Positions 208 through 54,744 of a DNA stretch of 64,000 bases are shown piece after piece. This DNA is from Bolinopsis microptera (lineage: Eukaryota), in the NCBI RefSeq assembly GCF_026151205.1, contig NC_087073.1, positions 19,228,658 to 19,292,657 of the forward strand, written 5' to 3'. The first letter of the stretch is position 1, and the number at the start of each line of letters is the position of its first letter. A program made the translations under genes and the position numbers. The notes under the pieces are model-generated. The model was given only the letters and a program-made list of their open reading frames with translations, did not search any database and was not told the DNA's origin.

Positions 208-397
208 TGTTAGTATTCTCACTGAGCTGCGAGGGCCACATCGCTGCAGTGTTTCTATTTCTATTATGGATTGTATTTGTATTTATATTCATTTATTTAT
301 TTATTAAGATGACTAACCATCTATCTCCATAGGAGTGGTGGGGCTGTTTTTACACTACAATTACTGCCTATCATTGCACCGTCTAACCAATAAAACA
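208..397 (+). repeat. 5' LTR of copia-type element (190 bp)
   Basis: Identical to 5732-5921. Starts TGTTAG and ends AAAACA. Confidence 0.9.
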
Positions 398-3300
398 TGG
401 TAAACAGTGAAGATGAAAAAGAAAGTAATCCACCACCTGATACAGCAACATCATCAAATGTTCAAGGAGCAGTACTGCAACCAGAGCCAATACAAGTGCA
501 GTACCAACAGCCAGCAGCCCGCCTTACAGCCCCACCGCAATGGAAAGCATCTATGAGTTATGAGGAATGGAGACTACAAGTTGAGATGTGGGACAAATTA
601 TGTGCAGTCAGAAAAGTAGACCCCGCAGAGCAAGGGTATGCCTTGTTCAACCTAGTATCTCAACACACTGATCATAATATCGTATCAAAGCTCAACTCAG
701 CAGTAAAAAACAAAGACATCGATGTTCTTGACGGGGAAGGAGTACAAAACATCATGAAGCTATTAGATAGAACATACAGGAAAGATGATACCAGTAAGAT
801 GATGAAATCCTGGTCGGATTTTATCAATCTTAGGAGAAAGGACAGTCAAGATATGTCAAGCTTTCTCAATAACTTTGATCAAGCCAACACCAACTTGAAA
901 ATTAGCAAGATATCTCTTCCTGGAACTGTGTTAGCATTACACATGCTAGAAAGATCCGGTTTATCAGCAAATGACAAAAAGCTGGTAATGACTGGAGTTG
1001 AGTTAGTTAAAACAGAGTCTGTTGTTGAAGATATGATGAATTCAATCAAGAAATACTTTGGTGAAGGAATCCGTGAGGTTGAAAAGAGACCACAATGTGA
1101 TACGCCCATCAAAGAAGAGCCAGTATTCAATGGTGAGAGACTTTTTTCTGAATCGTCAGAATCTACACGTTCATCATCAGATCCTGATAACATGTCTGAA
1201 GAAGAGGAAGCCTACTACACCAATTGGAGAAATAGAGGAAAGGCTTGGAGAAGAACAGATAATAACAGATCATACAACAATCACATCTCAAGATTTAATC
1301 GTGACAAAAGGGATAATGACAAAGGAGAATACAAGCCAAAGAGATATTCAGATAATGATCGAAGAAGAGATAACTCTAGAAGTTTCAAAAAAGAGTACTC
1401 TAAGACATATAAGACAGCTGATGACTCTAGGGCAACTCAGAAGTTTAACCCCCGGTTGAGATGTAATAGATGTGAATCAGTAATGCATTTGATTAAAGAT
1501 TGTCCTCATTCAGATAGATCAGAAAATGTTAATGAATGTAGAGAGATTTCAGAGATGGAGACAGCAGAATGCCATCAGGTAGCACTTTTAGACTCTGCTT
1601 GCTCGAAGAATGTAGTTGGCGAAGAATGGATTCGTGAGTACATAGATAACCTGACAGAAGAGGACAAAGCACTCCTGAAAGTGTCAGACGCCCGTTCAAA
1701 ATACAGTTTTGGAGGTAGTGACCCTATTGCTGCCGCAGATGCGGTGAGAGTACCTTGTATAATTGCCGGAAAGAAGACATTCCTTTGGGCTGATATAGTG
1801 CAAAGGAATATTCCATTTCTGATCTCCAAAGAAGAGATGGCAAAGCGAGGGTTTAAATTAGACCTTGGTACAAGTACGATTGAAGTAGATGGAGAGATGA
1901 TCCCTGTTATAACAACCGAGTCAGGTCTGATTGGCATATCTCTATGGGATTATAATGAAGTTGCTATAGAAGAGCAATGTAATCTAGTCAATCTAGATGA
2001 CACAGTCAGCAGTATTACCAAACTTCATAAGCAGCTGGGTCATTGTTCAGCAGAGAATCTGAAAAAGATTACCAAAAATGCAAACGTACAAGGTGAAAAT
2101 GTGAACAAGGTGATTGATCAAGTGCTAAAAGAATGTGATGCCTGTGCGAGATATAAAAGAACACCCTCCACACCAGTCGTTGGATTACCTATGGCAACGA
2201 AGTTCAATGAGGTAGTAGCTCTTGATTTGAAACAATTTACTGGAATCAATGGTTATGTGATTTACATTGTTGATATGTTCTCAAGATTCTGCAAAGCTAG
2301 GGTGATTTCCAACAAAAAGCCAGAGACAGTAATAAAAGCCTTTACTATGGAATGGATTGCAGCAGGTATGGGACCTCCAGGAAAAATATTAGTGGACAAT
2401 GGAGGAGAATTCGCAAACAATGAACTTAATGATCTCAGTGAACAACTCAACTTTGAAATTTGTGTTACCAGTGCCTACTCACCTTGGTCAAATGGCTTAT
2501 GTGAAAGAAACCATGCTGTGGTTGACAAATCAGTGCTTAAAATGATGTATGACGGGTTTCCATTGAAGATAGCACTTGCATGGTCAATCAATGCCAAGAA
2601 CACACTGTACAATGTCAGTGGATTTTCTCCAGTGCAGATAGTGACAGGTCAGAATCCAAACTTTCCTGGGGTATCTTACAACTTGCTACCTGCTAATGAA
2701 GGAGCAGATGAATCATTATCAAGCGACATTCAAAGGAATCTTAATGCAATGTATCTAAGCAGAAAAGCATATCTAGAGGCAGAGAATTCAGAAAGAGTTA
2801 AAAGAGCTTTGAAAAGACCCTTACGAGATATCAACCAAGACTTTATGATTGGTGATGTTGTATTCTACAAAAGACCTAATATTGAACGCTGGAAAGGACC
2901 TGCCAAGATAGTCGGCAAGGAAGGAAAGACTCTTATACTGAGGCATGGAGGACTGCTTATCAAAGCAGCAAGCTGTAGAATTGTGAAACGAGAATATATA
3001 GTGAGTGACGAGCACAACCAAAACAATGATGATATCTTGGAAACAGAGAATAGCATACATGATGAAGCAGTCAATCTTAACGATGATCAGTTTGATGAAG
3101 CTGCTGAAAACATAGAAGAAATGCCTATTCAATTTCAAGTGCCAGTGGAAACAGAGGAAATACCAACAGGACAAGAAATTATGAGCTCCTCTCCAATACT
3201 TGAAATAGACTCTAAGGTAATTTCCAATGAACAAAAACAACAACTCAAGATTAAGTATTTGGAAACTAGACTTCAGAAAAACGATGTTTCGGTCGGAGAT

Positions 3301-5013
3301 ACGGTGAAACTTGTTAAAGAAGGAAAAGAAAATGAATGGGAGACATGTACCGTGACTCAAAAAGGAAAACGGCTTGGCAGAAAAGATCACTGGGTGAAAC
3401 TTATGACAACCCAAGGTGAAGAAAAGCTGATAGATTGTACAAAGACGGCTATGTACAAAGCTGATGCTGCTATTGATGCAGAACCTGGAGACGATCACGA
3501 AGAATGTAATGTTGTGACAATTCCCACTTCCAGACACAATGAAGATGTGGTTATTAAGGCTAAAGTTATTGAATTGACTAACTGGAAGCAGAGAGAAGTA
3601 TATGATGAAGTCAAGGATTGTGATCAGAATGTCATTACAACAACTTGGGTAATAACAGAAAAACCCAGCACTGAACTTGGAGTTAAAGCCCGGTTAGTAG
3701 TCCGTGGATTTCAAGAGCAAAATCAGTCGATTGAAGTGGAGTCACCTACAGTATTCAAAAACACTCTCAAGGTTGTACTTGCTATAGCTGCAAACCAGCA
3801 GTGGCAACTAACAACGATTGATATCAAAGCTGCCTTTCTGCAAGGAAATAAAATTGAAAGAAATGTTTATGTCATACCACCCAAGGAAGCTCATGTAGAA
3901 AAAGGTTATTTGTGGAGATTGAGAAAGACAGTGTATGGTTTAAATGATGCGGCAAGAGCTTGGTTTATCAGTGTGAAGGGACTTCTTATCAACCTTGGTT
4001 GTACTCAATCAGTGTTAGATCCTGCTTTGTTCATATGGAGAACTAGTACTGGATTCGAAGGAACACTTGTGCTTCACGTTGATGATTTCTTAGTAGCTGG
4101 TACAAAGTCATTCTTTGATAGAGTTGTAAAAGAACTGACATCAAACTTTGAAGCTGGTAAAATCTGCAAATCAAAGTTCAATTACATTGGTCTATCAGTT
4201 GAGCAGACAGAAGACGGTATCCTAGTGAACCAACATGAATATATCCGAGATCTAGCAGATGTCATCAATGATAAAGAACATGAGATATATCATCTGTCGA
4301 CTGACAGGAAGCTTAGAACAATATGTGGTCAGTTGAACTGGGTAGCTGCTCAATCACGCCCAGATTTGTCATTCATGACGTATGATTTAAATGTAACAAA
4401 GAGTGTAGATCCAGTAGAAGCTGTTAAGAAGGCCAATAAAGCATTCAGACGGATGAAAGAGCTCAACGGTTGTTACAACACAAAGTTCTCAAAGTTAGGA
4501 GACATTTCTACACTAAAGATTGTGATCTACTCTGATGCATCATCTATGAACCTCGGTGACAAGGTGTCCACAGGAAAAGGTCATCTAATAGTCCTAATGA
4601 ATGAGGAAGGAAAGATATCACCGTTATCATGGGGAAGTCATAAATGTAAACGAGTTGTAAGCAGCACTTTGAGCGCAGAGACTTTGGCATTCAAAGATAC
4701 ATTAGATCATGGAGTGTATGTCTCTCATCTGATAAGTGAGATCTACTTCGATCAATTTGATAAGTCAATGGTTCCAGTAATAGGCTTTACAGACAATCAA
4801 TCATTAGATAAAGCTTTGCGATCAAGTAAACATGTTGAAGAAAAGAGGTTGAACGTTGATCTGGCTACCATTAGACAAATGCAGCAGAAAGATGAGATTG
4901 AAGTAAAATGGGAAGAGGGAGCTAAACAGCTTGCGGATCCCTTTACTAAAATAACCAGTAACAGTGATAAACTTTTAGTGATGCTAAATAAAGGAGAAAT
5001 TGTTTCAATTTAA
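397..5013 (+). CDS. Copia Gag-Pol polyprotein, uninterrupted 1538 aa
   Basis: Gag zinc knuckle CNRCESVMHLIKDC (CX2CX4HX4C). Protease LLDSACSKNVVG. Integrase HHCC (H..GHCSAENL ... CDACARYK) and DDE residues (IVDMFSRF / LVDNGGEF / CERNH). RT motif LHVDDFLVAG. RNase H region with IVIYSDASSM and TDNQS. Confidence 0.9.
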   Translation: MVNSEDEKESNPPPDTATSSNVQGAVLQPEPIQVQYQQPAARLTAPPQWKASMSYEEWRLQVEMWDKLCAVRKVDPAEQGYALFNLVSQHTDHNIVSKLNSAVKNKDIDVLDGEGVQNIMKLLDRTYRKDDTSKMMKSWSDFINLRRKDSQDMSSFLNNFDQANTNLKISKISLPGTVLALHMLERSGLSANDKKLVMTGVELVKTESVVEDMMNSIKKYFGEGIREVEKRPQCDTPIKEEPVFNGERLFSESSESTRSSSDPDNMSEEEEAYYTNWRNRGKAWRRTDNNRSYNNHISRFNRDKRDNDKGEYKPKRYSDNDRRRDNSRSFKKEYSKTYKTADDSRATQKFNPRLRCNRCESVMHLIKDCPHSDRSENVNECREISEMETAECHQVALLDSACSKNVVGEEWIREYIDNLTEEDKALLKVSDARSKYSFGGSDPIAAADAVRVPCIIAGKKTFLWADIVQRNIPFLISKEEMAKRGFKLDLGTSTIEVDGEMIPVITTESGLIGISLWDYNEVAIEEQCNLVNLDDTVSSITKLHKQLGHCSAENLKKITKNANVQGENVNKVIDQVLKECDACARYKRTPSTPVVGLPMATKFNEVVALDLKQFTGINGYVIYIVDMFSRFCKARVISNKKPETVIKAFTMEWIAAGMGPPGKILVDNGGEFANNELNDLSEQLNFEICVTSAYSPWSNGLCERNHAVVDKSVLKMMYDGFPLKIALAWSINAKNTLYNVSGFSPVQIVTGQNPNFPGVSYNLLPANEGADESLSSDIQRNLNAMYLSRKAYLEAENSERVKRALKRPLRDINQDFMIGDVVFYKRPNIERWKGPAKIVGKEGKTLILRHGGLLIKAASCRIVKREYIVSDEHNQNNDDILETENSIHDEAVNLNDDQFDEAAENIEEMPIQFQVPVETEEIPTGQEIMSSSPILEIDSKVISNEQKQQLKIKYLETRLQKNDVSVGDTVKLVKEGKENEWETCTVTQKGKRLGRKDHWVKLMTTQGEEKLIDCTKTAMYKADAAIDAEPGDDHEECNVVTIPTSRHNEDVVIKAKVIELTNWKQREVYDEVKDCDQNVITTTWVITEKPSTELGVKARLVVRGFQEQNQSIEVESPTVFKNTLKVVLAIAANQQWQLTTIDIKAAFLQGNKIERNVYVIPPKEAHVEKGYLWRLRKTVYGLNDAARAWFISVKGLLINLGCTQSVLDPALFIWRTSTGFEGTLVLHVDDFLVAGTKSFFDRVVKELTSNFEAGKICKSKFNYIGLSVEQTEDGILVNQHEYIRDLADVINDKEHEIYHLSTDRKLRTICGQLNWVAAQSRPDLSFMTYDLNVTKSVDPVEAVKKANKAFRRMKELNGCYNTKFSKLGDISTLKIVIYSDASSMNLGDKVSTGKGHLIVLMNEEGKISPLSWGSHKCKRVVSSTLSAETLAFKDTLDHGVYVSHLISEIYFDQFDKSMVPVIGFTDNQSLDKALRSSKHVEEKRLNVDLATIRQMQQKDEIEVKWEEGAKQLADPFTKITSNSDKLLVMLNKGEIVSI

Positions 5014-5921: not shown

Positions 5922-7130
5922 ATCCTCAATTTAATTCTTACAGTTATTCAGGTTCATGCCGGTTCATGAGGTTTGAATTGAGCCCTTTATTAACTATCAC
6001 AATAATTAACCAGTTTGATGTAAATTTGAGTCATAATGAACTAAACGTTTCTGAGTAACTTTTTACCTTTCATTGCACAAAGGAACTCCCCAGTATACTA
6101 ACAATTTGTATCATCTATTTGATGTGGAATAGGTTACATGTTGCTCTCTATAATGAAAGTGAAACTATCTATTTCAGTTTCTTTTTAGTTTCTGGATAAA
6201 TCACGCCCGTGTTAAAACAGAGAACACATCAATTTTAGTCGATCAAACTTAGTTCGCACTGCTCTCATTCATTTCGCAACTTTATCCTTTCGAACTTGGT
6301 GACGTTTATAGTCTTTATACTTTCCTGCTTAGATGAGCATGAACTATTAGTACTATACCCACTACCTAATAGTTAACCTAATCTGAAGTCTTTATGTATC
6401 CTTCAAACAAGTCCCCTGTTATCTTCTTAATTATATATCTACAGTACTTTAAACTATTATTCCGTTCTGTGAACGATCCCAAGGCATCTTATCCTCAATT
6501 TTCATTCAATAGCAACAATTTCTAAAATTTAGTCGGCAAAAAAATAGCAGGCAAATGGAGTCGACTTTTAGCAAGGTTGTAGAAAAATGATATGCTGCTA
6601 TAAATGTAATTTTAGGATTTGATAATGGCCTTACTTGGTTATAAGCTCATGAGGGTACTTTCCAACTCTTCGTCAGGGATTGTTCGCATATTATTACGCT
6701 ACGAGGTGACAAAGTCACTACTCCCTCAGTCAAGTGACTATTATAATGTAAAGAGGCTTTTAAGTTTTAAATCGTATTTTAACAAGATATTATACACAAA
6801 ACGAAATAATTACGTAAAGGCTGTAATTTTACTTTTATATGGAATATTAATGGATTTTTTTTATCTAGACACTTATTTTACTTCGGTGTATTCCAACAGC
6901 CACAATGTTACACAAGTGCAACCAGCCAATTACAGGAAGCCGAAGGATCTTTTTGGCCAGTGACGGTTAAGGTAGTGTGTACCATACTTTCTTCGTCCGA
7001 GACTTTGCTGCAATGTGCAGCTCCTCATTTAACCCTCACACCCGATTTCTCGAGTATTCGGCTGAGTAGACCGGGGGGCTGCATAGACCACTCATGATCC
7101 TTAGCTGAACGTCGACGACGCTCACCCCAC

Positions 7131-8372: not shown

Positions 8373-8852
8373 TTGCGTATTGAGCCTAATGTTTGTTTAA
8401 TTTTTCTGTCGATATTACTAATCCTCGTTAATTTCTGTATAGCAATGATGATCACCTTCATTGTGACACTTTCCCTGGTTTGTGCTCTAGCCTCTAGTAA
8501 TGACGGACTGAAGGTCCGAGCTCTGTCATTTGGTCGAACAAATGCAGACTATGTACAATTCAAACCCAGTGGTGATATGTCTCCGTTCTCTACTTCCTTT
8601 ACCATATGCTCATGGATGAAGAGACTTCATGATGCGAGTCACCCAATAGTGTTGCACTACTGGCCATGGGAATTGGTCATCGGAGACAACGGATATTGGA
8701 ATTACGCTAACGGGTACCTAGATCTAAGCGGAAGGTTCCCAGAAGCTAAACAGTGGTTCCATCACTGTTTATCGTGGGTGGTTGGAGGTACACAGAGAGT
8801 GTACGTGAACGGTGTACAATTAGGCAGCACATCCGCTTCAGCCTTCAGCTAA
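8373..8852 (+). CDS. Pentraxin-like ORF, N-terminal part (signal peptide and first half of the pentraxin fold)
   Basis: ORF track plus alignment by eye to CRP/SAP: FTVCLHF versus FTICSWM; HICTSWESASGIVEFWVDGKP versus HHCLSWVVGGTQRVYVNGVQ. Confidence 0.7.
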   Translation: MRIEPNVCLIFLSILLILVNFCIAMMITFIVTLSLVCALASSNDGLKVRALSFGRTNADYVQFKPSGDMSPFSTSFTICSWMKRLHDASHPIVLHYWPWELVIGDNGYWNYANGYLDLSGRFPEAKQWFHHCLSWVVGGTQRVYVNGVQLGSTSASAFS

Positions 8853-16135: not shown

Positions 16136-16640
16136 ATTCTAGTCATTTCTTTGTTGAGAATATTGATTATTGATTGTAAGTTGTGGTGGTTGTCAAAAAT
16201 TTCATGAGACGAAATGTATCGAATTCCACATGGAAAATTACCTTTTAAATTGCTTACTTTACTTAAAACTGCAGATCTTATGTAGTACAGTGACTACCAT
16301 TGCAAATATGTAATAAGTGTAGTAAACGAGCAATTGGAACCAACTGTTCCACTAAGTTTAACCACAGGAATGTAATTTGATACATTATGTTCCCCTGGTG
16401 CAGTGTCAATCATTGACATTACTTATAATTTACAGAACTGTGTTTTACAATACTTATCATTACAGACCGTTATATTTATAGTAAAAACATTCGTCTGGAA
16501 TCTGGATCATTGTGTCTATTATATACTTATTATATACTTAGTACATCTCACAGACTGTAGACTGTACAATGAGCTATTTGTACTAGATAAACACACACAG
16601 TCACATGGAATGTAGTATGTTGCCCGGTTAGTTGACAAAA

Positions 16641-16650
16641 TGGACACACA

Positions 16651-16710
<60 letters not shown>

Positions 16711-16716
16711 CCACCA

Positions 16717-16805
<89 letters not shown>
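16641..16805. repeat. (CACG)~12 followed by a (CA)~55 microsatellite
   Basis: Direct reading. The ORFs on both strands here are repeat artefacts. Confidence 0.95.
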
Positions 16806-16807
<2 letters not shown>

Positions 16808-17891
16808 TACATCATCACAGTAGTACAGAACAGATCCCTGGAGGTGATACACAGTGCTCATTACACAGAACCATGTCAATGTAATCTGGTAGCACTGCAA
16901 CTAACAGCTGTATCATCCTACTCATTAGTTGATTGGGCAGCAGAGGAACGTGCTAACTGTAGCTGTCACGTGACTGACGTAACAACCATTATTACAGCGA
17001 GACTTAAGGACTGTGATATCTAGAGAGACTGACTGTAAAAGCGTAGTGTGATTAATTTTGCCCTGATTATATCGGAGGCGATCTGGGCACGATTTTCATA
17101 CTACAAACTTGTCAAAGTCAATGAAACTGAAGCCACAGTGTGACAGAACATTTGGGTATTAATGTCTTTGTGTAAGGACTGAGAATAACACATGTATCTA
17201 TTAGCAATACTAGCAGGAACCCGTCTACCCTAAAGTGGTGTCAAGACTCGAGAGACTAAAATAATTATTACCTAATTAATTCGCGTTTTTGACACCACTT
17301 GGGAGTCAAAATTTTGGGCACTAAAATTCTTATTCCTTGGCCAATTTTTAATTTTTTCATGCTTATTTGAAGGCCATTAAAGCATTTGACCCAGTCAAAA
17401 AAATTTCAGTTGTATATCTTTTACGGTTTTTGCGGAAAGTCGCGTTAAAGTTGATGCCGTGGTGTCAGTAAAATGGCACGGATCCATATACATATTATAT
17501 ATATATTTCATGGCTGGACTTCTACACAATAAAAGAAAGCGGTTGTGATTAGATCTTCGAAAGTCTTTGCATCGTTTATTTACATCAATTCTGAGAAATT
17601 ATATCATTAAAGTAACTACAACAGATACGAATCATATACAATTGAGAATAAATACAAACTAAAAGCAGTGGGAAAATCTGATGAACTGAAATTTAAAAAA
17701 GAAACTGAAAGCCGTTAAAAATGTACTCTTATCTTATCTCTTATCTAAATACTGATAACTGATTCTCGGAAAATCACTTAAAATCACAACAAAAACCTGT
17801 AAAATTTATACTTAAGTAAAAAATGTAATATGCACGTCTCTGGAATAATGGTATAACTAAATAAAATCTACAAAATATACTAAAACTAAAA

Positions 17892-18731
17892 CTAAGCTCC
17901 GGCAGATTTAAAAAGTAGATGGTTACTATCAAGGGTGTTCATACCCCCAAACCGTTCAAGGGTTTTCAATTGGGTCTGGTAGAACCCCTCTCTAGCTTCC
18001 ATAGCCTTTTCTTTGTCTGCTTTACTAATATTAGGCTCAAATACTAAAGCGTCTACTATAATGACAGAAAGGTGCTTACTGAGTGAGGAATTATAGGAGG
18101 CTATGGTACTAAAATCTAAATCATGATCAATATCTAAAAAATGGTTAACTAATTTACAACTTCTTATACCTTTCTTTATGTGACTCTTATGGTTAGAGAA
18201 TCTCTTAGGGAGATTTGAGGTAGTATAACCGACATACGACTGTTTACAAGTCTTACACTCCATTAAATAAATGAGGTTATAACTCTGACAAGATATATAC
18301 TTAGTTATAGGGAAAACTTGTTTAGAATGGTGACTACTAAAATTGGAACAGGGGGACAGGAAATTTTGCTTACAAACATAACATTTACCACAAGCATGGC
18401 ACCCTGGGTCGACAGCCCCGGGAACCGCCCTTAGACTTTCGGAGTCCGGTTCCTGGATCTGGCTTGCAGTTGTTTCTCTCTCATTATCACAGTTTAAAGT
18501 TCCACTGGCACGGTACTTATTGTGTACAAGCATGCCACCGATAGTTTGATTCTTTCGATGACTCACGAATACACTGTCCACACGTACCAGCTTCTTCAGG
18601 GCCGGTTCAAGGTTGAGAAGGTGCTTATACTTATGGATAATGCCCCCCATGTTGGGAAGTGCTGGATTTTGATCCATCACCATGGGTATTAAACAGGCAG
18701 TCGACTCATCCTTGTCTTTAAGGGTATACAA
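17892..18731 (-). CDS. Free-standing ORF (279 aa) with a Cys-rich zinc motif and a complete GIY-YIG nuclease domain of Penelope-like-element (PLE) type. No RT is present, so this is probably a 5'-truncated PLE or an EN-only derivative.
   Basis: CHACGKCYVC (CX2-5CXXC-like) lies upstream of LIYLMEC..SYVGYTT....R...H (GIY...YVG), followed by the conserved Arg, His, Glu (EAREGFYQ) and Asn (GGMN). About 35% identical to the ORF at 35823-36452. Confidence 0.65.
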   Translation of the reverse strand: MYTLKDKDESTACLIPMVMDQNPALPNMGGIIHKYKHLLNLEPALKKLVRVDSVFVSHRKNQTIGGMLVHNKYRASGTLNCDNERETTASQIQEPDSESLRAVPGAVDPGCHACGKCYVCKQNFLSPCSNFSSHHSKQVFPITKYISCQSYNLIYLMECKTCKQSYVGYTTSNLPKRFSNHKSHIKKGIRSCKLVNHFLDIDHDLDFSTIASYNSSLSKHLSVIIVDALVFEPNISKADKEKAMEAREGFYQTQLKTLERFGGMNTLDSNHLLFKSAGA

Positions 18732-18825
18732 GTTTTTCCTATTAGCTATATCACTAAATTTGTTAAAGGCATCTTCTATAATACTGGAATGATAACCTCG
18801 GGCTATATATATTATATATTTTATT

Positions 18826-19239
18826 ACTAAATATATAACTTGTCAGAGTAATAACCTTATTTATTTAATGGAGTGTAGAACTTGTAAACAGTCGTATGTA
18901 GGATATACTACTTCTAATCTCCCTAAGAGATTTTCTAATCATAAGAGCCACATTAAGAAAGGTATCAGAAGTTGTAAGTTAGTAAATCACTTTTTAGATA
19001 TTGATCATGATTTAGATTTTAGTTCAATAGCCTTATATAACTCTTCACTTAGTACGCACCTTTCTGTTATTATAGTGGACGCTCTTGAATTTAAACCTGA
19101 AATAAGTCAAGCAGATAGGGAAAAGGCCATGGAAGCTAGAGAGGGGTTCTACCAGACCCAATTGAAAACCCTTGAGCGTTATGGGGGTATGAACACCCTC
19201 GATAGTAACCACATCCTTTTTAAATCCGCTGGAGCTTAA
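18826..19239 (+). mobile_element. Inverted, 5'-truncated duplicate of the GIY-YIG domain (about 90% amino-acid identity to the C-terminal 125 aa of the 17892-18731 ORF), head-to-head with the longer copy
   Basis: KYITCQSNNLIYLMECRTCKQSYVGYTTSNLPKRFSNHKSHIKKG... is encoded on the plus strand. Homology breaks at about 18810-18826. Confidence 0.7.
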
Positions 19240-19904
19240 TGTTTAGTTTATTTATTTTATTTGACATGATCTCAGCCTATTAACCAGTGTTTAGTTTACA
19301 ATATTGCTATCAGAGACGTGTTATATTCATTACTATTTATATATTTTTACTGCTTGATTCAGAGAAATCTAGCTTTTTCCGAGAAACTAATCTTTAATAG
19401 ATTAGATAAAATGTACGCAGCCATTCTTTTCGTTTGATTATTACTCAGTATATTTTAGTTTTGTACCGTTTTAAGTCACATAGTTTTGTACGTCTTCCTA
19501 AGACTTGTTTTCCTTTCCTAGTTTGTAAGTTATTTTAAAGATTTGTGAATATTCCAGTTGCTTTTAGAACAATTTTATCTCAGATAACGATGTTTAATAA
19601 AATGATGCAAAGACTTATTTCGAAGATCTAATCAACACCGACTTTTAATGTGTAGGAGTACAGCTACAAAATATATATATATATATCGTCTCGCTATATT
19701 ATATAGTAAGATAAAAGGAATATAGGCTGTAGTGTATGTACAATGAAAACCTACACTAAAATTACTAACCCGAAGGACTAATGGAAACTGTAGAGATATC
19801 TTTCTGGGAGATTGAGAGGGTGTGTATCTGGTCAAATGTGGGGAGGTCATACAACGTGAACTGACCACTGAAATTATTTACATGTTATTCGTTTTCTTTA
19901 TAGA

Positions 19905-20285
19905 TATTTATTATATAACTATTCAAATCAAAAATAGAACATAGAGAACATCTTGATGACCTGATAAGTCACCAAGAGAAAAATAACACAGAATAAACTA
20001 AATCATGCTTAACTCTCTCCATGCTTTTCTATCTGTTGCAAAAAGTCTTAAATGGTATAAATCGTCTGTATTTACAAGTCTAAAGTTTCTGTCACTTAAA
20101 TCGTTCAAAATAGTTTTTAACAAGTTTGACTGGTGTCGTCCGACTCTACCTCTCATCAAACTCTGACTCTCTACAGCAAAATGTAAGGCAAGCTGGGCAG
20201 GTAAGTTATTATCACTGGCCACTGCGGAGGATGTGACCGAGCATTCTCCACCGTGTACGAGCAACACGCTCACTTAGTGGAACAA
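19905..20285 (-). mobile_element. 3' fragment of a LINE (same family as 23945-26260) inside a PWP2 intron
   Basis: SDNNLPAQLALHFAVESQSLMRGRVGRHQSNLLKTILNDLSDRNFRLVNTDDLYHLRL parallels 23969-24595. The 3' UTR (tatataactattcaaatcaaaaatagaac) is shared with 23945-23990. Confidence 0.65.
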
Positions 20286-23944: not shown

Positions 23945-26260
23945 AATTAATATATTATATAACTTTATTCAAATCAAAAATAGAACATAAATGAACATCT
24001 TAAAGATCTGATAAGTAGCCAGAAAAAAAGAAATACTGATACACAAGCTATATAACAACTTCTTCCATCCCGCTCTATCAGAGGCTAAAAGTCTTAAATT
24101 GTACAAATCGTCTGTATTTACAAATGGAATGTTCCTACTACCTAAATCAAATTTAATAGTCTTAAGCAAGTTCGACTGGTGTCTGCCTACTCTACCCTTT
24201 TTGGTACTCTGACTCTCTACTGCAAAGTGTAATGCAAGCTGTGCAGGTGAGTTGTTATCACTGCGAAGGACATGTCCGAGCATCCTCCATCGTGCACATG
24301 CAACACACTCACTGAGTGGAACCACTTCACATCTCTTGTAAAGGGTGTCGTTTTTGATTATATTAGGGTAAGTCATTCTGATGATTTGCCTCAGATGCTT
24401 TCTGTGGCAAATATCCAGTTTACTCAGTAGCTGCTTTGAAGCAGCCCAGCAGCTACAATTATACATTAAGACGGAGACCACCTGGGCTTCGTAGATCTTA
24501 AGTCTGGTCTTAAGAGGTATGCGTTTACCTTGTTCCCAAACTTTCTTGTAGGTTTGGAGGGAAGTTGGTCGTTTAGCTCCGGACAGTCTATGCAACGTCT
24601 ATGCAACGTCCGTGCAACAACAAAAGAACCGTCTATGCAACGTCTATGCAACGTCCCTGCACAATGAACACTCTATGCACACTCCCTGCACGGTCAGTCT
24701 ATGCAACGTCTATGCAATGTCTATGCAACGTCCCTGCACAGTACCATATGAACACCGGCTACTAGCCGGCTACTAGCCGGCTAGTAGCCACTTTTTTAAT
24801 AACAGCTCCTCAACTTCACATTAACAACCGGCTACTAACCGGCACTTGAAAAGTGGTCACTAGCCGGCTACTAACCGGCTACTAGCCGGCTAGTGACCAC
24901 AAAGTGGCTACTAACCGGCTACTAAGCGGTCACTAGCCGGCTATTAGCCGAGCTCTAAAGCAGACCTATTAGTAGCCGGTTCTAAACCGGCTACTAGCCG
25001 GCACTTGAAAAGCGGTCACTAGCCGGCTACTAACCGGCTACTAACCGGCTAGTAACCACCAAGTGGCTACTAACCGGCTACTAACCGGTCACTAGCCGGC
25101 TCTAAAGCAGACCTATTAGTAGCCGGTTAGTAGCCACTTTGTGGTCACTAGCCGGCTAGTAGCCGGTTAGTAGCCGGCTAGTGACCACTTTTCAAGTGCC
25201 GGTTAGTAGCCGGTTGGTAATGTGAAGTTGAGGAGCTGTTATTACAAAAGTGGCTACTAGCCGGCTAGTAGCCGGCTAGTAGCCGGTGTTCATATGGTAC
25301 TGTGCAGGGACGTTGCATAGACGTTGCATAGACGTTGCATAGACTGACCGTGCAGGGAGTGTGCATAGAGTGTTCATTGTGCAGGGACGTTGCATAGACG
25401 TTGCATAGACGGTTCTTTTGTTGTTGCATGGACGTTGCATAGACGTTGCATAGACTGTCCGGAGCTAAACGACCAAGTTGCCGGTTTGGAAAGCAAGATT
25501 TGCCAGAATACATCGTCTTTTTATGTCCTCGTTGCTGCACAATTTGGAACCAAGTGAGATAGATGATCTCCAGGGCTCTCTTCCTCGAAGTGGCTCTCCT
25601 TTGTCATCAACTTCGTTCTTCTCGGCCAGATAGATATGTGTGAACTCTGTTTTTGATTCGTTGACAAAAAGATTCCACTCCTCCAATATCTCCTTGCATA
25701 TTGGTAACATGGACTCCAAATTCTTTTTATCCTCGTCTGTGAAGTCTGCGTCGTCTGCGTACTCCCACTCAAGAGGTAGCAGGTTTTCAGCAAACGGAGG
25801 GTTGGGTCTTAGATAAGACATAAAGGCACGAAGGTGATAAAGTGCGCCAGCCAAATACAGGGTGAAAAGGTTTCCAGACAAACTATCACCTTGGAACGCA
25901 CCTATCGTGACAATGAACTCCCCTGATACGGTAGACCTCACTTTAATCTTCAGTTTGGTACATGAGAGTAGGTACCTTATCAGTCGGATGTCGTCTTCAC
26001 TACAACCAGCATCAGCAAGAAGTTCTAGCAAAACTGATCTCTTAATGGTGTCGAATGCAGATGACATATCAATACCCATTTTGTGTAGAGACCAGCGTTT
26101 CTCCTTCACAACTGAAACTAGGATCCGTTGTGTCCAAACAATATTTGCACAGCTATGGCCAGGCTTGTAGGCATTTTGCCAAGGTCCTGTGTACTGAGAA
26201 ACTTGTCTTTGAATGCGTCTAAGGACTATCATGGACAATATCTTCCTGGTGCCGTTTAAA
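23945..26260 (-). mobile_element. 5'-truncated non-LTR retrotransposon (LINE; RT and C-terminal domain only, no EN), interrupted by the foldback-like insertion at 24567-25474
   Basis: 25465-26238 encodes RT motifs (GPWQNAYKPGHS, DMSSAFDTI, FQGDSLSGNLF, EYADDADF). 23969-24595 encodes the thumb/C-terminal region (LMYNCSCWAA...ARWRMLGHVLR). Reading continues in frame across the insertion when both flanking AACTT copies are kept. Confidence 0.75.
24567..25474. mobile_element. Foldback-like element (908 bp): long inverted arms built of short tandem subrepeats, inserted into the LINE RT ORF
   Basis: Left arm 24567 to about 24960 is the reverse complement of right arm about 25130 to 25474. Termini GGTCGTTTAGCTCCGGACAG / CTGTCCGGAGCTAAACGACC. 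Flanked by AAGTT on both sides (24562-24566 and 25475-25479). Same family as 10166-11363. Confidence 0.7.
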
Positions 26261-29744: not shown

Positions 29745-30248
29745 CTATTCCAAGTACCTAACTCGCTCTGCGGCTATATAAAATCTAGTCTTATCATTGA
29801 TATCATGCCACCCTATAGGTCCAACCTCACAGTCAGCACATGACAAAAACTTTATATTTTCCACTAAATGGGAAACCCCTATGTTCTCGAAAGCCATTAA
29901 AGAAGTAAGCAACCAAAACTTAGTGACAACTTCATTTTCTGGTGCATCTACTTTGTACCTAGACATTTTCATTTCACTCTCGACCAGCACCGCTGTGTCT
30001 GCCAAACAAATCTTACTAGGACACCTTGGACAATGTATCTCCTTGTTTTTGCTTCCTTCAGCGCATTCAATTGAACCCCACTCCACAAAGGACTGGTTTG
30101 TTGGTTGAGACGCTCCGCTGAGCGCAGCTCCCCCCATTAAAAGTTCTCGGAGTTGGTCCGCAGAGAGCTGGTGTTCAGGCCCAATGTTCTCTATATCGGA
30201 GGCAGCAGCCGCGACAGCGGTGTCCGGTAATTCTGCGTCACCAGGCAT
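29745..30248 (-). CDS. RABIF: MSS4 / RABIF-like Rab guanine-nucleotide exchange factor and chaperone, intronless
   Basis: FENIGVSHLVENIKFLSCADCEVGPIGWHDINDKTRFYIAAERV versus human MSS4 FENVGFTKDVGNIKFLVCADCEIGPIGWHCLDDKNSFYVALERV. Zinc-site HCPRCPSK versus LCQRCGSR. An alternative upstream ATG exists at 30290. Confidence 0.8.
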   Translation of the reverse strand: MPGDAELPDTAVAAAASDIENIGPEHQLSADQLRELLMGGAALSGASQPTNQSFVEWGSIECAEGSKNKEIHCPRCPSKICLADTAVLVESEMKMSRYKVDAPENEVVTKFWLLTSLMAFENIGVSHLVENIKFLSCADCEVGPIGWHDINDKTRFYIAAERVRYLE

Positions 30249-32198
30249 GGTTAGCTGTGTCAAGGATAGTTTGTTAGAATTACAATACATATTATGTAGG
30301 GGATTATCTTAAGGTTTCAAACACGCTTTAAATTTAAAATAATAGTTCTGAGCGTGAATTTAAATCTTAATCTTCTCTAACAGAGGCGACAGATAATATC
30401 AGCGATAAGAAGGAGGCAGGATTTCGATTAGATAAAACTCATTCAAATTAAACATGAGAATACACTATACTACATTAAATACACATTCGCAAAATTTGTT
30501 TAAATCAATTCCATTCACAATCAAAAACCACAATCAAAACCTCCTAATATATCTTATATCTGGTTGAATTGATTTGTCGTATTCTCATAGTCATAGAATT
30601 ATTGTCATTATTTCATCGATCATTTTATCATAATATTTAAAAACAAAGAAGTAACATTTTGTATTGACTTTTATCAATTTTTCGGAATTGTTTTTTACGA
30701 GCTCGGCATAGTCGAGCAAATTGTAAACGAAGTCTTTTAATGATTATCAATATCATCTGAAATTTTTAAAAACCTTCGAAATAATTAATTTCACATTTCG
30801 ACAAGAACCCAAAAAACAAGGCAAACAAAAATAATAATTCTAGCTCAATGCTTTCTAATAAAGCTTGTAGGTAGGCTGAGTTTAATAAGTCTATCGAAAC
30901 ACTAACTCACACAGGACATTGACAACGATTAACTATTATAATGCTACTGTCAAAACGATTGAAACCGTCCGGCACTATGTCCGGCACTATGTCCGGCACT
31001 ATGACCAAAACTACAGCCTCAAAGTTCCAACCTCAGTGATATACTAACTCCAGGACGTCATGCTCCAAAATATGCAATACCTTAAGTTCAGTTTTTACCC
31101 CTACAGTAACCCAAATTAAGCCGATTGCCTGGACCCAAAGTAATAACTTTTAAAACAGTTTTGTGCTCAAATTTAGAAGAACACGAAAATTTTAAAGATG
31201 AAAATATAATGTCTGTGCTAAAGCTTGACAGTTGCAACTAAAGAAGGAGTAGTAGTATCTAAAAGTAAAGGTATCAGGTTCTAGTCTATAATAGTGTATA
31301 CACAACGAATAAGGTCCTGTTCCAGTCGGCCTAAAGGACAGTACCCTTTTGAAGCAACCTTAACTCGAGTCAATCTAATCTGCAAAAGCCCTCCTCAAGT
31401 GCAACGATGGAATTTTATGACTATGGACCGAGCTCGGAGCGAGACTTAGTAGTGTTATGTTTTGTTTTACTTTTGATGAGGTACAAAATTCGTTCTCTTA
31501 TTCAATTACTATTCTGAAAAATCATTATATTCCCCATACAGAACATTTGGTGATGGTATTTTTTAAAGTTATGTGAAAATACCACACGGACACATCAGTT
31601 AATAACCTCCATAAATTATCTGAGAATAAAACGTATTAAACATTAACTATAACATTTGACAAGACGTGTCAAGGAAATTATTTGCATACTGCGTAAGGAA
31701 AATAGCATAAATCTAATAATTTTAAATCAAAGAAAAAACAAATTAAATTACACACCATACATTAAATATCATATATGAATTATGATATAATATAGCAATA
31801 ATTTAATATTTAGAATTAGATTAAGATTTAAACGAAATACCACACAAAATGATTAAAACTGCAAGGCATAGATTCCATAATCAGAATCTCAAGATATAAT
31901 TGTAGAAGGTGGATCGTCTGATAATAACACATAACATTATTATTATAAAAAAACTTAGTAACCAAGCAGTACTCTGGTAAGCCTAGTAACTTGTATATAA
32001 TATGTTTATATTGAGTCCTCGTTGTGATTTTCTATAGTAGCTGCATCAGCCCAGTCCCAATTAACGTCCAAACACACTACTGAGAGTCTAACATTTAGTC
32101 AACATAGTACAAATCATTGAGTGACATGGACAGTTGTTATTCCTATTGAATTATTAATGTCGGTGCTGGCCGGAGCACACACACACAAACAGTGCCAC

Positions 32199-35307: not shown

Positions 35308-35660
35308 TGTAGAAATAAGTAATGGTTAAGAAAATGTAGCAGTGAATTATTTCACCATAAAATATTACAAAATTAAAAGCGAATCAAGAGATCCCAGATC
35401 TTTTTTCTTGTGGTTGTATCTACAAACAAAATCAGTCAAAGCATAGATCAATATCAGAATCAAAGGTAATGATGAGTTATGCAAAATTTTAAAAACAAAA
35501 AAAAACAAATGAGTAAGCATAAAAAGCAAATGGTATAGATTAGGTGAAATACAAATTTATAACATGTAAATTAAATTTTGTAATTGAGGGATAATTGAGG
35601 AGCTTGGTCAGCCATCAGATCCAGTGGCTTAACAAAGTGCCCCATTTACCCCGCTGTGCG

Positions 35661-35705
35661 GCAGTGCCCAGTGGCGTAACGTTGCCTGTTGCGGGCCCTT
35701 CGTTA
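35661..35705. repeat. Hairpin motif H: 13-bp perfect stem (CAGTGGCGTAACG / CGTTACGCCACTG) with a 19-nt loop. Half-copies occur at 47021-47050 and 55448-55478.
   Basis: Direct reading. Lies about 120 bp upstream of the GIY-YIG ORF. Confidence 0.6.
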
Positions 35706-35822
35706 CGCCACTGCTGTGTGGGGGTGCCAAGTCGTTGTTTGAATGTGGGACAATTTAAAAAAACTTAACTTCAGTACTAGCAAAACTGTGCGTTTTGCTC
35801 TAGATACCTGAGATACCTCTAG

Positions 35823-36452
35823 ATTACCTCTAGTAACCTGAGTGACTCAAAACAACAGAGTAGCACCCTTGAAGAAAAGAAGAATGGCAAAAAGTTCTTC
35901 CAATTTGTCAAGAAAACAGGAAGCAACCTCAAAAGCCGGTTGGTTAAGGTGAAAGAAATAGCTCTGGGGAAAAAGCATGGTCAAACAAGGCCGTGTAGAA
36001 AGAAGAACTGTGCAACGTGTGAGTCTATTGATAGTGCTACACAAATCAGCATCAATGGGAAACGGGTAAAACCAGCACCAGGTACATGCATCACTTACAA
36101 CATCATATATTTGATCAGATGTAAACTGTGTGAGAAACCATACGTAGGCAAATCCACCAGAATGCTACGGGTAAGGTTTGGCGAACACAGAAGAGCATTC
36201 TACAAGATCATCAGTGGGCAAAAGGTTGACACGGATGATGACTCAAACTGCGTAGGACTCCACCTCCATATAGAGCATGGACTGACTCAGAAGGAAAATT
36301 TTAACAATAGTGTTTCAGTGTGTATCCTAGAAAATTCAAGTCCTAGTAGTTTAGATGTTAAGGAGCACCGATATATACATGCCTTAAATTCCCTCCGCCC
36401 CTCAGGAATGAATAGTACAAACCCTTTTAAGATTCCTTTATTGCATAATTGA
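35823..36452 (+). CDS. Second free-standing PLE-type zinc-motif + GIY-YIG nuclease ORF. There is no in-frame ATG near its start, so it is probably a 5'-truncated element.
   Basis: CRKKNCATC (CX4CX2C), then IIYLIRCKLCEKPYVGKST..R..FGEHRR (GIY..YVG..R..H), then LENSS...EHRYIHALNSLRPSGMN (Glu/Asn). Same architecture as 17892-18731. Confidence 0.6.
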   Translation: MTSSNLSDSKQQSSTLEEKKNGKKFFQFVKKTGSNLKSRLVKVKEIALGKKHGQTRPCRKKNCATCESIDSATQISINGKRVKPAPGTCITYNIIYLIRCKLCEKPYVGKSTRMLRVRFGEHRRAFYKIISGQKVDTDDDSNCVGLHLHIEHGLTQKENFNNSVSVCILENSSPSSLDVKEHRYIHALNSLRPSGMNSTNPFKIPLLHN

Positions 36453-36708
36453 TTTTTATTTTGCCTGAGGGGCTTTCCATAAATTATTTTTTTAAATAAT
36501 TGGTCCTTTTATTGATGTTTCATATTTCACGGCAGTTTCCTTTTCAGAGTTTGAGTTTATATTTAGAAACTAACCATACTATCTTTTAGATTTATGTCAC
36601 TTATGATGGCTCCGGCTGAAAGTACTATGACTCATTTTATCTAGAAGATTGTAGTTTCATTGCTTCTGAAGTAGCTATCAGTTCGCCGGTCAATGTTGGG
36701 TATAATAC

Positions 36709-38825
36709 TCTTGTTGCTCTAGATACATACTTTTTAAAGGATTTTACCCACGTATCCTCTAATATCACCTAATTTGTCCAATTTTACGTTTCTACTTTAA
36801 GAGGGGGAGGGGCACCAACTGGTGGCGCTTTTGCAGCGGGGGTGCCAACATGCAACATTATGCTACTGAATAGATCTAGAATCTTCTAAGAGTACCATAG
36901 TACTACAATTTAGATGTATATAATGCCTTTTGTTTAATAGAACCAGGATAAAGGTGCAATTGTGGAATGTAAAGATACTTGGACTCCAAACAAATTTAAA
37001 TTGCAGTACGTAATCTAATCTAATTGCAGCGGCACACACTTAAAAGCTTTAGTGATTCGTATAAGAAACAGCTACTCTCATCTATAACAACAGACCCTAA
37101 TTATACCGTCGACAATTCATATGACAAATTTTACACTGCAATCATAGTCAACGATAACTAAGTATCTTCTAATTCTTTTAAATCTGAGGCATATATAATT
37201 GATGTATCGAAAGGATATTCCCTTTTTTACCACCTTACCATTCTGATTGATTTTGCACATGACTGACATGTTTTAACTGGAGAAGGGGTTCGCACAGTGG
37301 TAGTTTTATAAACCACTTTTAATTTATTGACCTATTATACCTAGTGGTAGTTTTATAGACCACATTTAATTTATTAACTTATTATACTTAGTATTTATTT
37401 TTGGTGACTGTATCACCCAGTTTTAACATTTGATAATTGTACAGTTTATTGACGACACATTGACTGAATGTTATTTTATATTCTAATTTATATTCTAGAT
37501 ATTTTATTTATTTTTCAACAGACGACAACTTCCTGTTTTTTCTTCTATATTAGTTACTCATATCTCTTGTACAGACTGTTTTACAAGGACATTGACAGAT
37601 GATACTCACATTAGGCATTCATTATTGCATCTAAATTATTTCACTTGCATTAGGTTTAGAAATTTATTCTCTGGTTAACAGACTCAAATGTTTAATTAAT
37701 TTGTAGTATGACAGTAAGGTATCGTATATAAGAAGTTATTTAATTTTGCTTGGGCTATTATATTGACTATTGAGGTTTAATGATGATATGGAATTTGAAT
37801 ATTATATAAATTTACACTATGTGGTTGGGGCATTTTGCATAGTAAATATGGTTACTACTCCTATATATCATATTATTTGATTGGCATTCGATTTCTGGTT
37901 ATTTTCCTAGGAATATGATTATTATATCTCAATTTGGCTTTAGGTAGGGTGCCCCGCTAATAGAACTGGATTCTTCCAGGAAGCATCCCGTGCACAGAGC
38001 TTGGTCTACATATATATTAAATTATTAACCATTCATTCTGTATGTGCACGAAAATTTATTTCAATCAAAAACTTACTATTACTATCATGATTGTACTATA
38101 GACAGAAAATCTCTCAAATCGATTTTGGGCGCTTTTAACCATTTGTTGTAATGTTTTTAAATACTAAATATCTAAATTTATATTTACGAATTAATTAATA
38201 TTTAACAATTTATTCGGTAGTTCTATCTGATATTGATATTGATATTGATTATATTGATATTGTTGTTATTGAACGAAGCTAACTCTAGACATACCTTACT
38301 CGGGAATATTATGACTGGGATAAAGTGGTGGGTTTTGGAAAATTCCGCCATATTTTTCCCGGTCAAAAATTTTACCAGTCATAATAAAACCCGCCGAGTC
38401 AGATTATGGGGTTCCAAGGGGGTGGTGATCATCATATTTTACCTGAAGTCTCATATGTGCTAGAGAAGACGTTTGAAGCAGTGGATGGAGGGCTGTAACT
38501 TTATTGGCTGTTGCTACCATAATTTCGTTATAAAAATCACAATTTGGTTGTAGAAATCAGATTTCAGGATAGACCGTGATTCTCATTTCTCTTGGCCTTG
38601 CCCATGAATCAGTGAATCGTAGAGAAGAAAACAATTTATATGTTATAGAAGAAATCAGTGGAACGAGAGACATCAGCTGAGTCGCTCAAGATTGATCGCT
38701 TCTCGTGTGCAGTGTGTAGACTAAAAAAGAGGGAGTTTTTCCCGTTAAGGGGGGGGGCCAATGGATATTTTTTTGTGAAACTTGATTTCGAGATAGTAGT
38801 TGACCAACAAACTAAGACCAGTGAC
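36709..38825 (+). repeat. Copy 1 of a 2128-bp direct tandem duplication
   Basis: Near-identical to 38837-40953 (identical ORFs in the ORF track with a period of 2128). The junction carries an 11-bp TCTAGAGCAAC, the inverse complement of the unit start TCTTGTTGCTCTAGA. Confidence 0.85.
38301..38400. repeat. Roughly 100-bp hairpin-forming MITE-like module (inverted ends CTCGGGAATATTATGACTGGGATAA ... TTACCAGTCATAAT). Also at 40429-40528 (duplicate) and, diverged, at 45608-45716.
   Basis: Direct reading. The 45.6-kb copy ends with ATAATATTCCCGAG, the reverse complement of the 38.3-kb copy start. Confidence 0.55.
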
Positions 38826-52500: not shown

Positions 52501-54744
52501 TACTTTACAGAGATTGCATCTAAGAGAGTAACAGGACGCTCGCAATATCTTGTATATATATATATTTCGTTGCTGTACTCCTACACATTAAAAGTCGGTG
52601 TTGATAATATATACAAGATATTATATAATATATATTGTTAGTCAGCCACAACTGTCATTAAAACAACGCCTTGACATCAAATGTCGGTAAAATGTACCTT
52701 TACAGTCATCCTCAATAAATGTAATAGATTTGTAGTGTTGTAATTAGTTTAAAACTATATATATATATATACTTTCTTGTGTTTTAAGTCATATCTTAAG
52801 TTTGGCACATATAAATACTCCAATACTCTCACACATTATCCGCCATATAACGATGTAACTATCTGGAAAGTTTAAAGAAAGTCTATCAGTCAGACCTTGA
52901 GAAAATCAAAAATATATTCAAAGTTATTCACTAAAACACTCTATTTTCGAACAGATTTATCGTTCTGGTACCAAAATGCTTTACCATAATAAACGTACGG
53001 CGCGAGAACATTTTCTCGTCCAAAGTCTGACAGTTAACAACATGCGTAGGATTCCCTCAAGAGGTGAAAACGTAATCGCCACCCTCATTTACGTCTCTAA
53101 AATGCATGGTAGGATTGGCAGTTTATAATTATATACCTCATTGTTTATTTAAATAAGTATGAAGTAGATAACTTTTAACGAGCAAATTATAAGTAGGCAG
53201 TGCGCCATCGACAATAAGACGCGCGCGCTGACCATTGAATGGTTTTTTAGTTCTAATTTCGGCCAGCACATTATTTATTTTGGAAACAATCGAAAAGTTA
53301 TAATTTAATACTTCCCATATAACAATTTTGTTGAAATTTGGTCAGCTTACGTAAACACTTATGTTCTACTAAACATAATTTAGTTTGAGCAATTTCGATG
53401 GTCAGAATTTGAGTTATCAACTAATTTATTGACCATTGTTAATGATCTGGCCCGGCGCGCGCTACTTCGTAGCTCTTACCTATTTTGTCATTTTTAGACC
53501 TCTTAATCAAAGCCGATCTCTCCCAACTAAATTGCGTTCGGTAGTTAAGTATGATTGGAAGGTTCTGACAAATTTTCAGCATGATTCATGTTCAGGAACC
53601 GAAGATATGACAGAATAATACGACAAAAATCCAAAAGCCGCGCACCATCAAATATGGCACCTAGGCGATACTCGCGGATCATTCCAAAAAGGTATAATAA
53701 ATTTGGTACTGTGAAAATTCTCACACGTCACAGTCTCTAGAAAACGATGGTACAAAAATTTTGAAAATCCGAGCAAGTTTATTTTATCGTGCACCGCCTA
53801 TTATAAGCAAATTTTAATTGCAAAACTCAATTAAGACACATGATAAGGACATTTGTTTGTGCTTAAAAGTGTGTAAAACAATTATTGTAGCTAAAAGTAA
53901 ATACTAATAGCTTGAACTTTCCTAATATGTAATATAATGAAGTCTAATGAAAATATTTTGAAAATAATTAGAGAAAATAGTATGTTTTGGGCGAATTACA
54001 CCTAAAAATGACTTACCTGAGGACCCCAGGCTATTATGTTCATTAACATAAAGATTTGGCGGAATGACAGGCTGAGCGCGGCCCAGTAAAAAATGACCAG
54101 AAAAAGAAGGAAAACTACTAAACTTTGTCTCGATATCAACTTGAAATTATCTAGATAAGTAGATATTAAGAAATTATGGGTTTTAAAGGGGCCTGACCCA
54201 AAAGTTTGTTTTTTTTACACTACGCGGCACAACAAAATCTATTAAGCTCCTGAATTATTTGAGGTCTAAGAGTGCGGATTCTGTGTAAGCACTTTGCACG
54301 ATCTCATAGACCTCTCTCATGGTTTTAACGAGTGGGGTCAAAGATCCCGGGTCTTCCTCTCTCCCAACTTGAAGTAAAATATTCATTAACGGGTGATACT
54401 CGTAAAATATCTGTTCCATATATTGGACCGTCGACCATATACAGGACCGTCGACGAGTCCAACTCGGCGCGTGTCCTGGTAGGTTGTAAACCTACAAACC
54501 AAGCTCTAACATCGCTATGCACACATTTTCAAAAACTTGGTGATGAATATGAACTCCCTAAACCTTATCGGACGTTATTTGACCGGACATTGCGTGAACG
54601 GACATAATTTCGAACGGACATTAAAATGAACTCTTCGAAGGCATTCATGATCAGTATTTAACTTTAAGTTAACTACCTTATCGCATATTATTTGAACGGA
54701 TATCAAAATGAGGGCCTCCAGCGTCCAATTAATGTCCGTTCAAA

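Follow-up and report, generated by a model that had tools for sequence, protein, structure and literature searches.

Zinc-motif and GIY-YIG nuclease open reading frames in Bolinopsis microptera are probably the 3' tails of 5'-truncated Penelope-like elements

Open reading frames (ORFs) encoding a zinc motif and a GIY-YIG nuclease were analyzed in a stretch of 64,000 nucleotides of Bolinopsis microptera (contig NC_087073.1, positions 19,228,658 to 19,292,657), referred to here as the window. The three ORFs most probably came from two families of Penelope-like elements (PLEs) with a C-terminal endonuclease (EN), as 3' tails of insertions that were 5'-truncated and dead on arrival, and the two ORFs that lie head to head were most probably two insertions into (TA)n. 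We put the probability of this reading at about 0.87. Copies A, B, C and D lie in the window, and P00xx proteins and L00x loci are relatives from other assemblies. All homologues of the nuclease ORFs came from ENA/JGI metagenome assemblies, several of which were Tara Oceans marine samples. An initial annotation had reported these ORFs with an inverted partial copy. It offered two readings of them, either as PLEs with an extreme truncation at the 5' end or as an EN-only family that was possibly non-autonomous or domesticated. The first was borne out, as fuller copies elsewhere carried an upstream reverse transcriptase (RT) in the same direction or in the same ORF. The features are listed in Table 1.

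The identity of the nuclease was examined by profile, structure and alignment. The ORF of copy A on the minus strand (17892-18731) encoded 279 aa, and homology to relatives ran on to 18806. The Pfam GIY-YIG domain (PF01541) was matched above the gathering score by copy A (E = 1.5e-7) and by the inverted partial copy B (E = 3.8e-5), and the second paralogue at 35823-36452 (copy C) fell slightly under it (E ~ 9e-4). This was the profile match by which the initial annotation had proposed to check its domain call. The predicted structure of the nuclease had a pLDDT (predicted local distance difference test) above 90, and its top structural match was I-TevI. GIY, YxG, Arg, Glu and Asn, the catalytic residues of the GIY-YIG alpha/beta fold, were conserved. 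In an alignment of 25 sequences across both families, the three Cys of the linker, the Cys before the GIY strand, I-Y of GIY, G of YxG, Arg, two His, Glu and Asn were invariant or at least 90% conserved.

PLEs that carry an EN are characterized by N-terminal GxKF/Y and DKG motifs and by a GIY-YIG domain with a CCHH motif, in which two Cys stand between GIY and YIG (Craig et al. 2021, PMC8557442). A CX2-5CxxC linker is found in Neptune, Nematis and Naiad and has been tied to (TA)n targeting (Craig et al. 2021, PMC8557442). In the window, the linker read GCHACGKCYVC in copy A and CRKKNCATC in copy C. The CCHH motif, with its Cys pair inside the GIY-YIG core, was present in copies A and B (LIYLMEC-xx-CKQSYVG...NHKSH) and in copy C (IIYLIRC-KL-CEKPYVG...EH). 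The linker, the two Cys and the His residues that followed them agreed with the PLE-type nuclease of the initial annotation. Every PLE hallmark that was open to a check at the level of motifs was present. Many distant relatives (P0077, P0086, P0078 and the consensus of alignment A5) had one Cys only between GIY and YIG, whereas the window copies had CxxC. The Cys kept by several of the distant relatives was the second one. The "universal" CCHH motif seems to be variable within this large family.

In both families, relatives that were less truncated contained the RT. For copy A, the homologues of greatest length (444-485 aa) were extended upstream by the Pfam domain HTH_animal and then by the back half of the RT palm, with the palm sequences "MGPKNSCEYADCAM" and "RLRDDIYMAW". 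The relatives on long contigs, P0037, P0038 and P0042, added the DKG motif and RT1-RT3 ("RPFDKG", "NPKAHKPP..PGRMIT" and "AIDISNMFTNIP"). In L002, the RT, HTH and GIY-YIG parts all ran in one direction and were interrupted by frameshifts only. The best long relative of copy C was in L003, directly 3' of a DUF8422 ORF. The L003 composite read, in order, QADKGG, LKIHK..PPIRLVTA, YDFKALYDSL, QKNGVPTGG, RRYIDDGAGF, then HTH_animal, the linker and GIY-YIG, and its RT and EN parts shared one direction, with frameshifts present. At a cut-off of E ≤ 0.001, an exhaustive HMMER search with P0038 found 10,820 clusters, each with a representative. Among the matches, RT and GIY-YIG were found in one ORF in P0077, P0086 and P0078. 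These proteins were intact (816-916 aa) and carried every part in one frame, namely the GxKF-like and DKG motifs, RT1-7, the thumb (HTH_animal), the linker and GIY-YIG. Upstream of the RT core, P0038 had the DKG motif as RPFDKG, L003 had it as QADKGG, and a consensus built from 50 relatives had it as PADKG. The GxKF/Y-type motif was "GPKFVPTP" in P0086, and the consensus read G..F.P.P. P0102, a 32%-identical relative, passed the Pfam RVT_1 threshold and had a sub-threshold C-terminal GIY-YIG in the same protein. The EN was C-terminal in every full-length relative and locus. Pfam files the RT of the family under DUF8422 and HTH_animal, not as RT. As judged from sequence, relatives with RT, thumb, linker and GIY-YIG in one frame have the architecture of C-terminal-EN PLEs.

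All genomic copies examined were truncated at the 5' end (A, B, C, D, L001, L002, L004, L006, L007 and L009). By tblastn, copy A aligned to aa 177-480 of P0003, copy B to aa 342-480 of P0003 and copy C to aa 499-689 of the L003 composite. On the family profile of 767 positions, the copies covered positions 511-753 (A), 645-754 (B) and 571-752 (C). The ORF remnant of copy A was uninterrupted over 915 nt (305 codons). The flanks were unrelated from copy to copy. Those of L006 were non-homologous, and L006 was therefore not an ortholog. Since the 5' ends varied between copies, there was no defined EN-only unit. For this reason, the initial proposal of an EN-only, non-autonomous or domesticated family was not supported. 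The many homologue contigs of ~1.75 kb were also considered as a defined shorter unit. This was rejected because the 5' boundaries varied (P0038 aa ≤204, 232, 234 and 260) and the flanks were unrelated. L001 (at ~198) and L007 (at ~56) are independent family-A copies that come from different samples and whose flanks are unrelated, yet both were cut at nearly the same residue, in RT motif B at "AMGPKNS". Stopping or rejoining may be favored at this point, or the agreement could be a coincidence.

Table 1. Coordinates of the element copies and their boundaries in the window, and first retained residues of related loci.
Feature	Position in window	Strand	Description
Copy A	17506..18806	-	5'-truncated family-A PLE; ends ...GTGTAGAAGTCCAGCCATGAAA; from tblastn, profile, Pfam and 3'-end comparison
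Copy A, ORF remnant	17892-18806		end of RT thumb/HTH, Cys linker, GIY-YIG
Copy A, 3' untranslated region (UTR)	17506-17891		
(TA)n-like flank	17486..17505	.	abuts copy A 3' end; read from sequence
TA-rich remnant	18804..18821	.	TATATATATTATATATTT; 5'-5' junction of A and B; read from sequence
Copy B	18814..19671	+	more deeply 5'-truncated family-A copy of a different sub-lineage; ends ...GTGTAGGAGTACAGCTACAAAA
Copy B, ORF remnant	18814-19239		GIY-YIG only
Copy B, 3' UTR	19240-19671		
(TA)n flank	19672..19686	.	abuts copy B 3' end; read from sequence
Left target-site duplication (TSD) of copy C	35795..35807	.	13 nt, TTGCTCTAGATAC; perfect direct repeat
Copy C	35808..36713	+	5'-truncated copy of second PLE family
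Copy C, ORF remnant	35823-36452		linker and GIY-YIG
Copy C, 3' UTR	36453-~36711		
Right TSD of copy C	36714..36726	.	13 nt, TTGCTCTAGATAC; begins 2-3 nt past end of L004 homology
Copy D	52565..52604	-	3' terminus of a B-type family-A copy, 40 nt, with extreme 5' truncation (TCAACACCGACTTTTAATGTGTAGGAGTACAGCAACGAAA); from blastn of copy A 3' end against the window
L006			retained from P0003 aa 189
L001			retained from P0038 aa 234
L007			retained from P0038 aa 232
L009			retained from P0038 aa 260
L008			retained from P0038 aa ≤204 (contig edge)
L002			retained from just upstream of DKG

The relation between the two head-to-head arms was then analyzed. Copies A and B formed an inverted repeat of 429 nt with 87% identity, and 125 of the 138 aa counted from the translations were identical. 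Over the 138 aligned codons, the nonsynonymous divergence (dN) was 0.048 and the synonymous divergence (dS) was 0.67, giving dN/dS = 0.07. Third positions held 38 of the 52 differences (Fisher p = 3e-17). Similar values were obtained against L006, a third copy that came from a different assembly. The low dN/dS would be due to selection that acted on active source elements before insertion. The 3' UTRs of the two arms were alignable over the last ~110 nt only, at 79%. Copy D was identical to the copy B terminus at 38 of 40 positions and was clearly less like that of copy A, so the B lineage had transposed independently in this genome. The dN/dS value, the mostly unalignable 3' UTRs and the separate B-type tail meant that the arms came from different source lineages. 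In terms of descent, A and B appear to derive from two different active lineages and not from a duplication. The initial annotation had called the second arm a duplicate and had compared the pair with the inverted-truncated-copy organization of PLEs. The head-to-head pair itself was real, but its origin from one duplication was not supported.

Both outer 3' ends of the pair abutted (TA)n (...CAGCCATGAAA followed by TATATATATAAT, and ...CAGCTACAAAA followed by TATATATATATATAT), and the 5'-5' junction read TATATATATTATATAT. B, D, L006 and L001 were compared with copy A to define its 3' end. (TA)n was also found at the 3' ends of other family-A copies (L001, L006, L007 and L009), and TA-rich sequence was present at the 5' junction of L006 and L009 too. 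Copy D sat within a TA-rich palindromic site. The simplest reading of these sequences would be two successive insertions, in opposite orientations, into one palindromic (TA)n microsatellite. The Cys-rich linker may take part in the recognition of (TA)n.

Copy C differed in its target, which was not (TA)n. L004 was 93% identical to copy C, and the homology stopped at window position 36711. Together with the perfect 13-nt direct repeat, this meant that copy C was a 906-bp insertion with a 13-nt TSD. Between the left TSD and the clear protein homology, stuttering target-like units of ~10 nt were seen at 35798-35845 (CTCTAGATAC CTGAGATAC CTCTAGATTAC CTCTAGTAAC CTGAG). They could be a PLE "tail" or a product of template jumping at the 5' junction. 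Hairpin H (CAGTGGCGTAACG...CGTTACGCCACTG), with a perfect stem of 13 bp, was located at 35669-35713. Its sequence recurred at 35622, 47017 and 55474, and the window held 5 matches against 0.5 expected (sites 35622-35713, 47017-47029 and 55474-55486). Hairpin H and the GGGGGTGCCAA repeats were considered as termini of copy C and rejected, since they lay outside the TSD and hairpin H recurred in the window. The same applied to the G-rich hairpins (36800-36850), which the initial annotation had suggested as termini together with hairpin H and which also lay outside the bounding TSD. Hairpin H probably belongs to an unrelated small dispersed repeat, such as a miniature inverted-repeat transposable element or an element like a short interspersed nuclear element.

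The 3' UTR of family A was unalignable apart from its last ~85-110 nt, which contained the conserved blocks ATGATGCAAAGA, TCGAAGATCTAATCA and TGTGTAG..AG..CAGCTACAAAA. This terminus was found in the window at 17506-17600 and 19578-19671, in L001 at 1700-1797, in L006 at 6960-7061, and at the 3' ends of L007 and L009. Its consensus fold gave a 5-bp stem only, with no covariation and no conserved secondary structure. The terminus may be a cis element recognized by the RT.

A scheme for the formation of the copies can be drawn from what is established for PLEs. The full-length element would encode one protein of ~800-900 aa with the GxKF-like and DKG motifs, RT motifs 1-7, the thumb (Pfam HTH_animal), the Cys-rich linker and GIY-YIG with its core CxxC. 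The target would be nicked by the GIY-YIG nuclease, and the RT would prime at the nick and copy the element RNA starting from its 3' end. Premature termination would leave only the 3' UTR and the nuclease-coding end. Family A would target (TA)n. As a palindromic repeat that remains on both sides of a first insertion, this target could be used again in the opposite orientation. A second element of a different sub-lineage would have entered the same microsatellite reversed, giving the head-to-head pair, and copy C would have inserted elsewhere and generated its 13-nt TSD.

Other origins of the pair and of the ORFs were weighed against two (TA)n insertions of truncated PLEs. PLE insertions show heavy 5' truncation, and in many cases an inverted 5'-truncated copy lies alongside, at their 5' end (Craig et al. 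2021, PMC8557442). The pair might be one classical insertion of this type, an element with an adjacent inverted copy of the same RNA, whose arms later diverged by decay. The junction is merely ~7-15 nt wide, and A and B are mutual closest relatives among the available sequences (87% vs 84-86% to L006). However, decay after insertion predicts dN/dS near 1 and uniform divergence, which was not the pattern of the two arms. In addition, the tail at 52565-52604 recorded an independent transposition of the B lineage, and the (TA)n remnant at the junction is what two insertions into one microsatellite would leave. One insertion followed by decay was judged quite improbable. A single complex insertion event using two different RNAs may also account for A and B. 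The ORFs could instead represent an RT-less, EN-only family, non-autonomous or domesticated by the host. The window contained no RT of the family, and the initial annotation had noted none preceding the ORFs; a six-frame scan with the family profile found three pieces only (A, B and C). The arms showed purifying selection relative to each other, and the long intact remnant of copy A is also expected of a selected gene. Against this, the fuller relatives in each family carried an RT that shared the frame or the direction of the nuclease, and the 5' ends varied among copies. Each copy had the 3' UTR of the element and ended in (TA)n or a TSD, as a retrotransposed copy does. Copy B had no linker, and its sole in-frame ATG came after the GIY strand. 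The L006 copy was not an ortholog, and the low dN/dS could be explained by selection before insertion. An EN-only family was considered very improbable.

The remaining question was whether the elements belong to the named PLE clades. Canonical C-terminal-EN PLEs usually carry a hammerhead ribozyme. The initial annotation had suggested a search of the flanks for hammerhead motifs, and none were found. Rfam gave no match at the gathering threshold, none at E ≤ 10 on 17300-19900 and none at E ≤ 1 on L001-L003, and no CUGANGA...GAAA core was present on the sense strand when 11 3' UTRs were searched. The examined loci showed neither a pseudo-LTR (pseudo long terminal repeat, pLTR) nor a partial tandem. 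Pfam did not recognize the RT of P0038 and P0042 even at E ≤ 10, and PDB sequence searches with both RTs gave no meaningful match. These negative results, like the open remnant of copy A, weigh against the assignment to PLEs given above. The elements might be GIY-YIG retroelements outside the eight named PLE clades that resemble Neptune/Nematis at the motif level only. The missing hammerhead, the filing of the RT as DUF8422 and not RVT_1, the Hydra-like RWK motif of P0042 alongside DKG in P0038 and CxxC in GIY-YIG, and the single Cys of many relatives are in line with this. On the other side, the checkable motif-level PLE hallmarks were all present, and distant relatives did match RVT_1. The family is very large and animal-associated and is presumably already catalogued under LINE/Penelope in repeat libraries, which also counts against a separate lineage. 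We regarded placement outside the named clades as unlikely. It also seemed doubtful that the DUF8422-HTH_animal-GIY-YIG elements form a PLE lineage outside the eight named clades, abundant in marine planktonic animals, in which the ~85-110-nt 3' terminus replaces the ribozyme as the cis-acting end.

The window was eukaryotic in character, with long (CA)n and related microsatellites, sparse ORFs and a GC content of 33-47%. Transposable elements were abundant, and host-like genes adjoined them. At the window start, an uninterrupted 1,538-aa Ty1/copia-type gag-pol ORF (397-5013, +) had an rve integrase preceding RVT_2 and looks like a potentially intact LTR retrotransposon. Elements of the long interspersed nuclear element (LINE) type were found on the minus strand at 43005-45188, 25465-26238, 23969-24595, 49013-49522 and 19998-20273. 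They comprised RVT_1 ORFs of 727 aa and 257 aa and C-terminal fragments with the common motif "SPAQLALHFAVESQS..GRVGRHQSNLLKTI", and one fragment lay ~300 nt past copy B. The host-like genes included a 722-aa protein, encoded by a single exon, that has LDL-receptor class A repeats (LDLa) and a rhodopsin-type seven-transmembrane region (56103-58271, +), a homologue of the Rab guanine-nucleotide exchange factor Mss4 (29745-30290, -) and an ORF with a Laminin_G_3 / concanavalin-like domain (8373-8852, +). Long compound microsatellites were present upstream of copy A (16640-16810, (ACGC)n/(AC)n) and at 58596-59006, where a run of ~290 nt translated as an uninterrupted (RV)n repeat.

The copies are most probably ordinary 5'-truncated insertions of two PLE families and have little import beyond annotation. 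An orphan zinc-motif and GIY-YIG ORF in an animal genome should be read first as a truncated PLE 3' tail. A head-to-head pair need not mean duplication, and codon-position analysis can separate one complex event from two (TA)n insertions. The A/B pair is a small and clean case in which (TA)n serves as a landing site that can be used again in either orientation. Minor points for curators are that a hammerhead was not detectable and that general domain libraries label a very large RT family as DUFs.

The elements were finally compared with known systems. I-TevI-type GIY-YIG homing endonucleases differ from them in having no upstream Cys linker, core CxxC or RT fusion. Penelope/Poseidon and Naiad/Chlamys share the related RT and GIY-YIG domains and apparently the same truncated and inverted style of insertion. 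However, Penelope/Poseidon have no CX2-5CxxC linker, and the nuclease of Naiad and Chlamys is N-terminal, whereas it was C-terminal here. Naiads favor (TA)n and are without a canonical hammerhead (PMC8557442), and none was found in the elements here. The Hydra clade resembles them in its short single-ORF elements, C-terminal EN, (TA)n targeting and aquatic animal hosts (Craig et al. 2021), and in P0042 an RWK-like motif immediately preceded DKG. In contrast, DKT replaces DKG in the Hydra clade, which has a CxCX5C linker and canonical hammerheads but lacks CCHH, while the elements here had DKG, CX2CX2CX2C or CX4CX2C linkers and core CxxC, and no hammerhead was found. Neptune and Nematis have a C-terminal GIY-YIG EN, a CX2-5CxxC linker and CCHH (Arkhipova 2006; Craig et al. 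2021, PMC8557442). Compared by motif, the elements here differed from them in that no canonical hammerhead was detected, no pseudo-LTR was seen and many relatives had one core Cys. They were similar in the single ORF with DKG and GxKF-like motifs, RT, thumb, a CX2-5CxxC linker before the C-terminal GIY-YIG and CxxC within it, and apparently also in the heavy 5' truncation, the inverted head-to-head arrangements and the (TA)n preference seen at the ends of family-A copies. At the motif level, once Penelope/Poseidon, Hydra, Naiad and Chlamys are excluded, the architecture appears to be of the Neptune/Nematis type.
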